64,000 nt of DNA from a virus, in IMG/VR virus record IMGVR_UViG_3300032308_001681, positions 1 through 64,000 of that record; one strand, 5' to 3'. A program made the position numbers and the translations under genes. Below the pieces are notes generated by a model. The model saw only the letters and a program-made list of their open reading frames with translations, was not told the DNA's origin and made no database searches. Shown in pieces: positions 18,390 to 21,515 of the stretch. How positions within the stretch are numbered: the first letter of the stretch is position 1; each line of letters opens with the position of its first letter.

Positions 18390-18556
18390 TGGCAATGTGC
18401 AAGTGTGGCAAATGTGCTGCGTGTAAAGCCCGTGCAAAGAAAGACGCCCCCACGGGAAAGAACGCAAAGCTTGCTTCGATGTATGGAGACAAAAAGAAAA
18501 TCACCCGTGGCGATGTTATTACTGCCGCCAAGATGAACAAGAAAAAAGGTAAATAA
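18389..18556 (+). CDS. 55-aa Lys-rich protein with N-terminal CKCGKCAAC motif
   Basis: TAATG-coupled at both ends; N-terminus paralogous to next gene; not in ORF track. Confidence 0.7.
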   Translation: MAMCKCGKCAACKARAKKDAPTGKNAKLASMYGDKKKITRGDVITAAKMNKKKGK

Positions 18557-18807
18557 TGGCAATGTGTAAGTGTGGTACGTGCGCGGCTTGTAAGAAGCGT
18601 GCAGCCGATAAAAAGAACAAGCCCTATATTGGTTCATCTGCTGATAAGAAGCAGGATGCCAAGACGACGAAGGGCATGACCCCTGCCCAGAAGGCAAAGT
18701 TCAACAAAGAAGACGCCAAGATGGACAGGAACACCAAGCTCACCAAGGCGCAAGACACTAAGAAAGACAACGCTCTTGCCAAGAAGATTAAGGCTGGTAA
18801 GAAGTAG
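18556..18807 (+). CDS. Lys-rich protein with N-terminal CKCGTCAAC motif
   Basis: 83 aa, very Lys-rich, TAATG coupling. Confidence 0.75.
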   Translation: MAMCKCGTCAACKKRAADKKNKPYIGSSADKKQDAKTTKGMTPAQKAKFNKEDAKMDRNTKLTKAQDTKKDNALAKKIKAGKK

Positions 18808-18825
18808 TTTTAAGTAAAACGAGTT

Positions 18826-18850
18826 AGCCCCGCTAAATGCGGGGCTTTTC
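18826..18850 (+). terminator. intrinsic terminator
   Basis: AGCCCCGC-TAAAT-GCGGGGCT followed by TTTC. Confidence 0.75.
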
Positions 18851-18862
18851 TCTATCCTTAAA

Positions 18863-18986
18863 GTGTAGGTAATCCGTGCGGACCCTATACAGCTTCGGCT
18901 GGCTTGCGTGCCTCGAAAGGGGATTTGAATGTTTACCGCTACTTGTCATGCAGGCGTCTCAACATTCATCCCCGTTAGTGCAGGTG
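18863..18986 (+). ncRNA. putative structured RNA (sRNA or cis-regulatory leader)
   Basis: TATCCT -10 at 18853-58; multiple helices, UUCG and GAAA tetraloops, long GGGGAT..TGAATGTT/AACATTCATCCCC duplex. Confidence 0.6.
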
Positions 18987-18990
18987 CCAA

Positions 18991-19302
18991 GTGAAGCGCA
19001 TACAAGAAGGCCTTAAACGAGCCGCGCATGAAACTGCCGTGTACATGACCGCAGACTTGCAAAACCGCGCGCACGAGCACGGCTGGGACGAAGACGTTGC
19101 CAGCAGTATTCGCGTGCACTACGAGGACGGCAAATTTAAAGCAAAAGTCTCACCGGAGCACAGTGACCGTGCGTTCAGGCACGAGTACGGGGATGAGAAC
19201 AACCCCCCAAAAGCTACGGTGCGTAGGTATGACAACTCATCCTCTGCCGAAGAGGCCTACCTAATTAGCCTGCACAAGCATGTTCTGGGAGGGTTGTTTT
19301 GA
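18991..19302 (+). CDS. neck/tail-completion protein
   Basis: 103 aa, HEYGD motif, position before tail terminator. Confidence 0.55.
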   Translation: MKRIQEGLKRAAHETAVYMTADLQNRAHEHGWDEDVASSIRVHYEDGKFKAKVSPEHSDRAFRHEYGDENNPPKATVRRYDNSSSAEEAYLISLHKHVLGGLF

Positions 19303-19973
19303 CATTTCTAATCTCTGAAGATGAGGCCCTTCGAAAGAAGCTTCAAGGAATGACGGTAACTGACCAGAAGTCAGAGGGGGACGGCAATCCTCGCTCGGTA
19401 GGCGTTTGGTTTGGGCAGCCTGACCAAGAAATTCGTTCACAGGGGTATCCGTACATTACGATTGATATGTTGGATATTCAACGTGACCAAGCCCGTGAAA
19501 TGCGTGGAATTGTGTCGCCGTGGTACCTCGACCCAGAAACCCCTAATGCTGATGGCTTTGACATCCAGCTGCCTATTCCGGTAACTATCGATTACCAGAT
19601 TACGTCGTATGCGCGACACCCGCGCCACGACCGAGCTATCGTGAGCCAGTTGCTTCACGAGAAGTTCCCCATAAGATTCGGCTACCTATCTGTAGACACA
19701 GGAAAGGTAGACGGGGAGGGCAACCCCCAACACACACTTCGTCGTTTGGACATCATGGATGTCAATAAACGCGATGTCACGGAACAAGCAAAGCGGTTGT
19801 TTGTAAATGTAATAACCGTACGTGTTTCTAGTGAGGTATCGGTAGATGCAGCACGACGAATCTACGAAGTCACATCTATCGACATAACTACTCCATCATC
19901 GTACCTGTCGCTAAATGGCGGCCGTCCCGGCGACCCGTACTGGGTAGGTATTGATGAAATCCACATCGCCTAA
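19299..19973 (+). CDS. tail terminator/completion protein
   Basis: YPYITID, PVTIDYQIT motifs; immediately upstream of sheath. Confidence 0.65.
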   Translation: MTFLISEDEALRKKLQGMTVTDQKSEGDGNPRSVGVWFGQPDQEIRSQGYPYITIDMLDIQRDQAREMRGIVSPWYLDPETPNADGFDIQLPIPVTIDYQITSYARHPRHDRAIVSQLLHEKFPIRFGYLSVDTGKVDGEGNPQHTLRRLDIMDVNKRDVTEQAKRLFVNVITVRVSSEVSVDAARRIYEVTSIDITTPSSYLSLNGGRPGDPYWVGIDEIHIA

Positions 19974-20015: not shown

Positions 20016-21515
20016 ATGGCCGCATATGGTCGCCCCGGCGTTTACATCACGGAACGTCTTCTTCCTGCCCCCATCTCGTCCGGAGGTGGCACGGCTGCGG
20101 CTGGAGCCGTCATCTGCAGCTTGGGACAGGGCCCCACGGATATTACTCTTGTAAATTCGTGGTACGAATTCACTCAAACTTTTGGTGGATACGACCTCAA
20201 CTACCCCGCAACTTTTGGCATTGGGCAGTTCTTCAAAAGCGGTGGAAATGAGCTTTACGTCCGTCGCGTTCTTGCATCGGATGCAGTTGCTGCCAGTATG
20301 ACTATTGCGGCTTCGGCAGGTACTGTAGGTACCATCACTGCTCGCGCCAAGGGTGTTGACGGGAATAAGCTTGCTGTTCAGTTTATTCAAGTAGGGTCTA
20401 GTGCCTACTACAATGTCATTGTCAGCAAGGACGTTGGAACAACTGCCGATGTAGTTCTTGAGCAGTATGACAATGTCATGTTCGATAACGACCCTGTTAC
20501 AGGCGACTTTATTGTAGATGTCATTAACAATGCCTCGGCCTACATTACGGTGACTGTCAGTGACCAGACCAAGGTTCCTAGCGTAACAACTCCGGTTGGC
20601 TTTACAAGCGGCGCTAATGGTGCGGGGCTTGCAACAGCCGACTTTACGTCTGCGCTGGCCGACTTTAACGCGCTTGACCGTCCTCTTGTTATGTTTAGCC
20701 CAGAGCTTCACCGCCAAACGTTTGCTGCGGGTGGCGCAACTACGGCAGCAACTGTCTTAGACACGATAATTTCGTATGCTGCAACTGCAACCAACGTATT
20801 TGTGGTTGCCGAAACGGCGCCAGACTTGTCGGTAGCTTCCGCAATTACTTACGCCGATGGCCGTGCAAACCAGAGCAATGTCGCAATGTACTACCCCAAC
20901 GTTTTCATTGCTGACCCGTTTGGTCGGAATGCTACGTCGGTCCGTAAGTGCGGTCCTGCAGGTTCTGTGGCTGGGTTGTACATTGCAACTGACCGGGCTC
21001 AAGGGCCGTTCAAATCGCCTGCCGGTTTGCGCACCGAGCTTGGTGGCGTAGTTGCTCTTGAACGCCGCTTTACGTCAGCAGAGTTGGATACCCTTAACTC
21101 CAGCAGCTCGCCGGTAAACGCAATTCGCGATATCCCCGGCGCAGGTGTAGTGGTTATGGGTGCTCGCACCCTGCTGCAGGATGGAACGGCTAACCGTTAC
21201 GTCTCTATGCGACGCTCGCTTATTCACATCCAAAAGCAGCTCAAAGACCTTACGCAGTTTGCTATGTTCGAAAATAACGACTCCAACCTGTGGGGCCGGA
21301 TTCGCACAACGCTGAGTGTGTTCTTGAACGATTACCGCAATATTGGCGGCCTTGCTGGAACCACCCCTGATGAGGCTTTCTTTGTCAAGTGTGACCGGGA
21401 AAACAACCCGGACTCTGATATTGCACAGGGAATCGTAAACATCGAGGTTGGGGTTTCGCTTGAATACCCTGCTGAGTTTGTTGTCATCACTCTCAGTCAA
21501 AAGACTGCAAACTAA
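20016..21515 (+). CDS. tail sheath protein
   Basis: RPGVYITE N-terminus, GARTL, RYVSMRR, FENND, AFFVKCDRENN, PAEFVVI. Confidence 0.95.
   Translation: MAAYGRPGVYITERLLPAPISSGGGTAAAGAVICSLGQGPTDITLVNSWYEFTQTFGGYDLNYPATFGIGQFFKSGGNELYVRRVLASDAVAASMTIAASAGTVGTITARAKGVDGNKLAVQFIQVGSSAYYNVIVSKDVGTTADVVLEQYDNVMFDNDPVTGDFIVDVINNASAYITVTVSDQTKVPSVTTPVGFTSGANGAGLATADFTSALADFNALDRPLVMFSPELHRQTFAAGGATTAATVLDTIISYAATATNVFVVAETAPDLSVASAITYADGRANQSNVAMYYPNVFIADPFGRNATSVRKCGPAGSVAGLYIATDRAQGPFKSPAGLRTELGGVVALERRFTSAELDTLNSSSSPVNAIRDIPGAGVVVMGARTLLQDGTANRYVSMRRSLIHIQKQLKDLTQFAMFENNDSNLWGRIRTTLSVFLNDYRNIGGLAGTTPDEAFFVKCDRENNPDSDIAQGIVNIEVGVSLEYPAEFVVITLSQKTAN

Follow-up and report, generated by a model that had tools for sequence, protein, structure and literature searches.

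In phage MS2, the coat-replicase interaction and the 5' leader of the maturation gene gate translation over long distances. The long-distance RNA interactions of MS2 have been modelled (PMC9894550). By analogy, the locus described here would resemble MS2 in that a start site may be shut by a distant segment of the same mRNA and opened by ribosomes or during the nascent phase of the RNA, and in that the genes involved are coupled. It differs from MS2 in belonging to a double-stranded DNA tailed phage, in having no sequence or structural homology to the MS2 elements, and in being known from its sequence and predicted folds. Furthermore, the start site is predicted here to pair with the 3' end of its own short cistron and, via a linker, with the next Shine-Dalgarno (SD) sequence, and the pairing persists after the enclosed coding sequence has been lost.

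Leaders that sequester the SD sequence, and upstream open reading frames (ORFs) that deliver ribosomes to the next gene by stop/start overlap, are found in bacterial and phage operons. The present locus shares with these systems an anti-SD/SD hairpin (denoted P3 below), the chaining of genes by ATGA, GTGA and TTGA overlaps, and a short ORF with an apparently irrelevant peptide, but it differs from them in containing a family-conserved motif with two additional covarying hairpins and with invariant UGC and RUGC elements, which falls outside Rfam. Stem-loops at the 5' terminus act as mRNA stabilizers in the ompA 5' untranslated region and in Bacillus/SP82. Here, too, a stable hairpin would lie within a few nucleotides of the 5' end as it is placed by the putative promoter, but its conserved loop sequence suggests more than protection of the end. 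In the HK022 put RNA and the lambda PR' late leader, structured RNA directly follows the promoter of a long late operon. The locus likewise contains structured RNA immediately downstream of the putative promoter of a long operon, but differs in the lack of detected similarity to these RNAs, the lack of a terminator within the leader, and the very short second hairpin (P2).

The window, that is, the whole stretch of 64,000 nucleotides that was analyzed, covers the initial 64 kb of an IMG/VR virus record of 94.5 kb (IMGVR_UViG_3300032308_001681) with direct terminal repeats, and all sizeable ORFs of the window are carried by the + strand. The leader is located between an operon of small, lysine-rich basic proteins on the 5' side and the overlapping gene chain p103-p224 on the 3' side. 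We consider it likely that positions 18846-18994 comprise a cis-acting promoter and leader that would gate the translation of a coupled chain consisting of a small ORF, p103 and p224. An earlier note on this DNA had read the segment as a structured non-coding RNA; all the motifs that it named are present at the coordinates it gave. The features of the locus are as follows.

18556-18807, + strand: p83, the last gene of the upstream operon of small lysine-rich proteins.
18826-18846, + strand: intrinsic terminator of 8 bp, with 7 GC pairs, followed by a T run; it closes the upstream basic-protein operon.
18853-18858, + strand: -10-like hexamer TATCCT, with T18853, A18854 and T18858 invariant in the family.
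18863-69/18884-90, + strand: outer stem of hairpin P1, GUGUAGG/CCUAUAC, pair probability 0.83-1.0, beginning at the presumed transcription start.
18873-75/18880-82, + strand: inner stem of P1, UCC-GUGC-GGA, with the loop GUGC, within 18873-82.
18890-18901, + strand: hairpin P2, CAGC-UUCG-GCUG, present in the minimum free energy (MFE) fold, with double changes in relatives.
18902-18910, + strand: linker, with an invariant UGC at 18905-07 (columns T60, G61 and C62 of alignment A1).
18911-18923, + strand: hairpin P3, CCUC-GAAA-GGGG(A), in which the anti-SD CCUC pairs with the SD GGGG(A) (CCUC/GGGG at 18911-22) around the loop GAAA.
18919-23 and 18926-33 with 18961-73, + strand: long duplex, GGGGA/UGAAUGUU with AACAUUCA/UCCCC, pair probability 0.65-1.0.
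18929-18994, + strand: 21-codon ORF (MFTATCHAGVSTFIPVSAGAK) with the SD GGGGA, an ATG at 18929, and a TGA stop that overlaps the p103 GTG (GTGA).
18937-56, + strand: small hairpin enclosed by the long duplex.
18981-18993, + strand: SD (AGGUG) and GTG start of p103, both predicted to be sequestered in the equilibrium fold.
18991-19302, + strand: p103, with a GTG start, the first full gene after the leader.
19299-19973, + strand: p224, with a TTG start and a TTGA overlap with p103 (19299-19302).
20016-21515, + strand: tail sheath gene, next after p224.

Relatives of the locus were collected via p224 and comprised the best 80 of 302 IMG/VR matches together with 80 loci from JGI and ENA metagenomes; searches for relatives with p103 alone and with the sheath protein yielded none. 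About 100 distinct related freshwater phage contigs carry the conserved part of the leader (18853-18928), always before the same operon and always directly upstream of an SD and an ATG. An nhmmer search recovered the leader from 67 of the first 80 related loci, and blastn and nhmmer comparisons showed that nucleotide-level conservation extends from the terminator to ~18928 in almost all loci long enough to include this segment, the flanking proteins in the same loci being merely 27-65% identical. A covariance model (R1) built from 53 distinct sequences gave 56 matches in metagenome contigs outside the model set, some of which duplicate the IMG/VR contigs used for the model. The genome of the window contains a single leader, an HMM of the leader having found no second copy there, and five near-complete relatives of 88-95 kb likewise have one each. 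No match to the locus was obtained by blastn among cultured phage records. A search with p224 against bacterial and archaeal genomes recovered no relatives, so that no prophage-based clue to the host is available.

As the earlier note had held, the leader does not belong to a known RNA family. A cmscan search of Rfam 15, with 4 kb and with a 161-nt stretch alone, returned no family at the gathering threshold in 18853-18993; the best overlapping matches were to miRNA models, with 13-15 bits compared with thresholds of 46-53. No known riboswitch model matches the locus, and conserved unpaired positions are few (the RUGC loop and the UGC of the linker). The scan for tRNA and tmRNA found none.

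The hairpins were named by hand, and their pairs were counted on a MAFFT alignment of 53 distinct relatives (A1) that was not fitted to the structure. In A1, 83% of the cells are paired, compared with 30-48% when the partner is slid, and 114 cells show double changes, compared with 44 in shuffles (none of 500 shuffles reached 114). Such double changes occur in 9 of the 10 P1 pairs and in all 4 P2 pairs. The count was repeated on A2, an alignment of the metagenome matches fitted by the covariance model, which leans towards the structure, with 84.6% of the cells paired, 118 double-change cells versus 33, and double changes in 8 of 9 P1 pairs and 4 of 4 P2 pairs. The structure previously proposed for this segment is thus real and conserved, the covariation among homologs that was to be looked for being present in both P1 and P2. 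On the plain MAFFT alignment, RNAalifold recovered P2 alone, P1 and P3 being displaced by indels. The many G.U pairs of P1 and P2 indicate that the structure forms in the + strand RNA; a minus-strand RNA was considered and rejected, given that these G.U pairs turn into A.C mismatches there and the fold is weaker.

The P1 loop conforms to RUGC in the family, and the UGC of the linker is invariant. These conserved unpaired elements hint at a sequence-specific partner that stands outside the gate model. None of the results suggests that the adjacent basic proteins bind the RNA, a possibility raised in the earlier note. P1 and P2 are also retained in the lineages that lack the small protein discussed below and, accordingly, are not the operator of that protein; their likely role is that of a 5'-terminal stabilizer or a factor-binding module.

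The promoter-like features that had been noticed after the terminator recur across the family. A terminator-like hairpin is found at the same place in 45 of 66 distinct relatives, and the terminator stem is compensated between the window and locus L015. The hexamer conforms to TAnnnT in 66 of 66 distinct relatives, in seven variants, and T18853, A18854 and T18858 are the only invariant positions of the 5' part in A1 (53 distinct sequences). Invariance of positions 1, 2 and 6 is the conservation pattern of a -10 box, with the T1, A2 and T6 that are conserved in -10 elements of the sigma-70 family. No conserved -35 hexamer is present at 16-19 bp spacing in the alignment of the relatives, its place being occupied by the terminator; there is no TG of an extended -10 at -15/-14; and a promoter consensus scan found no sigma-70-type site with both hexamers at the leader. 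When the 94.5-kb genome was scanned with a position weight matrix of the promoter part, a single other good site emerged, and hence this is not a repeated or obvious promoter class. We infer that TATCCT is the -10 box of a promoter and that transcription would start at ~18863-65, 6-7 nt downstream of the hexamer, at the first base of P1. A search of sequencing runs for this sequence returned no RNA run.

In P3, 78-82% of the cells are paired (A1 and A2). The variation in this hairpin is mostly one-sided (U-G/U-A and C-G/U-A/U-G), so that its support is weaker than that of P1 and P2. As in SD-sequestering leaders, the SD is paired in P3 with an upstream anti-SD within a conserved hairpin. The MFE of the whole stretch is -47.8 kcal/mol, which is moderately better than chance (z -2.19; 5 of 200 shuffles as good). 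The long duplex pairs the SD and AUG region of the 21-codon ORF with the sequence just before p103; for this pairing of the translation-initiation region with the downstream segment in the window, z is -2.8, and 11 of 1000 shuffles are as good. Furthermore, in the MFE fold, the linker and the anti-SD pair with the SD and start region of p103 (18982-92) through GCUUG/CAAGU and GUGCCU/AGGUGC. A pairing of GCUUGCG with UGCAGGU over the SD of the next gene had been proposed; linker-SD pairing is indeed present, but the register in the MFE fold is slightly different. Locus L002 has a perfect AACCUGC/GCAGGUU linker-SD pairing at the same place.

The proposal that the RNA adopts mutually exclusive folds is borne out for this genome, where P3 and the long duplex compete. 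In the nascent RNA, before the 3' arm is made, the computed probability of P3 is 0.27, and in the full RNA at equilibrium, the long duplex has a probability of ~1.0 and P3 of ~0. The closed form has an energy of -54.1 kcal/mol compared with -44.0 kcal/mol for the best fold in which P3 is forced, so that forming P3 costs 10 kcal/mol. In L002, unlike the window, P3 and the long duplex coexist.

In most relatives, the 3' part of the locus is occupied by a gene for a protein of 58-73 aa, which is located at a fixed distance after the leader and mostly shares an ATGA-type overlap with p103. The members of this small-protein family (for example, L042:3508-3696, L022:3505-3702, L034:1614-1808, and ~80 other loci) share the motif KPWWE.VNDY..F.ER.EF.RG...RPN...AGYV, followed by ...GKK. 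The small protein of the relatives belongs to no Pfam or PHROG family and has no copy elsewhere in the genome of the window; wherever it is present, it heads the neck/tail operon.

Judging from its sequence, the 21-codon ORF of the window is a shrunken remnant of this gene. It still begins with the residues MF, as some of the intact genes do, and contains, in frame, an SAG equivalent to the AGY of the family. The segment had been taken to be non-coding; this description has to be amended, as 18929-18994 holds an ORF with an SD, an ATG and a GTGA overlap, and a match to a small coding sequence, which the earlier note had named as evidence against its own reading, applies to the 3' half. The closest relatives (L002, L003/6, L004/5 and L015/18) have ORFs of 21-37 codons that encode unrelated peptides, in different frames relative to the homologous nucleotides. 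In L057, the C-terminal half of the small gene alone is kept, and a third clade has 10-13 codons in its place. Thus, the small gene was lost or truncated separately in at least three lineages, the genome of the window among them, and replaced by ORFs of 10-37 codons.

Each of the 100 distinct loci has an ORF that opens at the conserved start and closes between -8 and +20 nt of the estimated p103 start, and all homologs have the SD, the start, and a stop overlapping or abutting the next start that characterize a coupled upstream ORF. The probability that the five longer remnants stayed open by chance is roughly 0.001, an estimate that uses a stop frequency of 3/64 and treats the remnants as independent. 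A frame that is open in all loci, even where the short versions encode unrelated peptides, points to an ORF that is kept as a ribosome conveyor, and this appears to be the function of the short ORF, its peptide being dispensable. The persistence of the frame and the geometry of its start and stop further suggest that the 21-codon ORF is probably still translated. Another ORF, of 46 aa (18876-19016), was considered as a gene and rejected: it would start at a GTG inside the conserved loop of P1, lacks an SD, and is not preserved as a frame in the relatives. This ORF overlaps p103 and could be called wrongly by an annotation pipeline.

The start assigned to p103 agrees with the alignment of its N-terminus from residue 1 in the relatives. 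The short ORF, p103 and p224 are chained by stop/start overlaps of 4 nt, GTGA at 18991-94 and TTGA at 19299-19302, and translation of both p103 and p224 probably depends on a single start site controlled by the leader. Both genes use non-ATG starts. The p224 protein is 34-36% identical (E 1e-17) to proteins of Streptomyces phages that carry the annotation tail terminator or minor tail protein.

The pairing of the initiation region with a distant downstream arm is not confined to the window. Independent folds of L002, L003 and L005 have the same architecture, with the AUG region paired downstream through different matched sequences; examples of such arms in clade A are UUUUGCGAAAUGG with CCAUUUCGACAAAAU and GCGGAAUG with CAUUCCGC. 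The long-range pairings of four clade-A sequences each beat 97-99% of dinucleotide shuffles. In many of the lineages with an intact gene, the same complementarity spans ~200 nt, with the final codons of the small gene matching the anti-SD, the loop, the SD, the spacer, the AUG and codons 2-4. The differences between the arms are matched by lineage, with CCUGUA/UACAGG versus CCUCGAUU/AAUCGA and UCUUCUC/GAGAAG versus UCUGC/GCAGA. Cognate arms also pair more stably than swapped arms, with -28.1 versus -24.7 kcal/mol for 46 sequences (0 of 10000 permutations) and -24.2 versus -21.8 kcal/mol for 52 representatives with less than 75% identity (0 of 20000 permutations). Complementary and co-varying distant arms, as expected of a long-distance gate, are present in the clade of the window and in roughly half of the lineages. 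In about half, cognate arms have no advantage over swapped ones, and there it is the GYV codons to which the P2/linker region is complementary. The G.U asymmetry of the long-range arms, in the subset that bears the duplex, indicates no strand.

A related signal is seen in codon usage. At the Ala position of the AGY motif, GCA is used in 46 of 64 cases (72%), compared with 34% of all Ala codons in the small genes, which suggests an RNA-level constraint inside the small gene, via pairing with the CCUG of the leader linker. The wobble A before GY persists even in genes that have Ser (TCA) in place of this Ala.

These pairings, and the persistence of the ORF, bear on the alternative that only the 5' part (the promoter and P1-P3) is functional, 18929-18990 being neutral debris of the deleted gene and the duplex accidental or left over. 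The presence of different matched arms in four independent clade-A sequences, all of which outdo 97-99% of their shuffles, the same pairing across ~200 nt in the intact-gene lineages, and an ORF open up to the p103 start in every lineage render this explanation unlikely, even though the small gene is clearly lost here, the short-ORF peptides are unrelated and differ in frame among close relatives, and the z score of the whole-stretch fold is merely -2.19. The conservation of the stretch in two of the relatives argues in the same direction. The cassette 18812-18993 is 92% identical over 187 nt to L015:1587-1773 and L018:629-815, whereas the flanking proteins are far more diverged (45% identity for p83, 37% for p103 and 59% for p224); the shared stretch begins behind the stop codon of p83 and breaks off at the start codon of p103. 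This pattern suggests that the control cassette was recently exchanged by recombination between diverged phages.

RNase III-type sites are found in intergenic leaders of T7 and lambda. The long duplex of the present locus might similarly be a processing site (for example, for RNase III), with P1 and P2 as stability elements, in which case the region would control mRNA half-life or the separation of the leader from the tail mRNA instead of directly gating the entry of ribosomes. The equilibrium fold in the window contains roughly 26 bp of stacked, interrupted helices with bulges, and the hairpin at the 5' end fits the known 5' stabilizers, but the helices are short, and cleavage of the duplex would cut the start site of the intact small gene from its body; we regard this explanation as improbable.

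The favored explanation, that of a promoter and leader gating translation in cis, builds on what the comparisons and folds show: the anatomy of the locus and its conservation, covarying pairs in P1 and P2, long-range arms that change together, an ORF that persists, and the computed energetics. To these, the model adds, as suppositions, promoter activity, the transcription start, translation of the short ORF and the gating mechanism. Transcription of the upstream operon would end at the terminator, and a promoter with a TAnnnT -10 element and without a conserved -35 would restart it at ~18863-65. The new mRNA would open with P1, followed at once by P2, as a stabilizer or factor-binding module, and P3 would hold the SD of the first cistron. 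All that would be left for the remnant ORF to do is to deliver ribosomes to the p103 GTG, which it overlaps, and then, via TTGA, to p224. The full-length untranslated RNA would close both start sites, through the long duplex and through the pairing of the linker with the p103 SD. Ribosomes that load on the nascent RNA, where the weak P3 would be the sole competitor, or that cross the short ORF, would keep the gate open, and the gate would thereby set the output of the coupled neck and tail-terminator genes. The suggestion of a switch controlling the tail operon, made in the earlier note, is compatible with this model, the position and anatomy of the element fitting such a role.

The main reading of that note, a free-standing phage small RNA of ~130 nt that has a promoter of its own and acts in trans, is very unlikely. 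The promoter-like hexamer after the terminator, the stable conserved hairpins and the lack of an Rfam match would all suit such an RNA, but there is no terminator or other 3'-end signal between 18847 and 18991, and the structure runs into the SD and start of p103. Moreover, the conserved part ends at a fixed distance before an SD and ATG and, in most relatives, runs directly into the small protein gene, and the downstream genes, p103 and p224, have no promoter besides the putative one of the leader and are chained by overlapping stops and starts. The leader is an uncatalogued regulatory RNA motif of a familiar functional kind, not an RNA gene. It is equally hard to accept that P1 and P2 act on RNA polymerase in cis, in the manner of put RNA, making transcription of the tail operon resistant to terminators: two adjacent conserved stem-loops do directly follow the presumed start, and a + strand operon tens of kb long lies downstream of the leader, but P2 has merely 4-6 bp, no similarity to known antiterminator RNAs was detected in Rfam, and P3 and the long-range pairing would be left unexplained.

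A more far-reaching version of the gating model can be put forward only tentatively. The leader of the neck/tail operon might 'circularize' the first cistron, by pairing its ribosome-binding region with its own 3' end and with the next SD. The RNA device itself would then be the selected unit, which survives with matched arms after the independent loss of the enclosed coding sequence in several lineages and moves between phages as a cassette, and the RUGC loop and UGC repeats would be a docking site for a phage or host factor that times the expression of the tail genes. Should this reading be true, such a regulatory RNA design would be new among phages.

With the leader, a large family of freshwater myophages, uncultivated and with genomes of ~90-95 kb, gains a well-supported cis-regulatory RNA motif, which would mark the start of the tail transcription unit of these phages. 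The intact, truncated and 10-37-codon versions of the small gene form a natural series in which the RNA pairing and the delivery of ribosomes are kept and the protein is lost, and which should be useful for studying the evolution of translational coupling and of long-range mRNA structure. For phage annotation, it is relevant that an apparent 'ncRNA gap' may be a decayed small gene.

The second-best match to the promoter part of the leader in the genome, at G000:C1:94056-94104, lies outside the window, near the right genome end. At this site, a terminator hairpin (GGGAGAC...GTCTCCC) directly precedes CTTATTCTTAAAGTAG, and the arrangement of a terminator followed by TAnnnT-TAAAGT matches that of 18826-18865.
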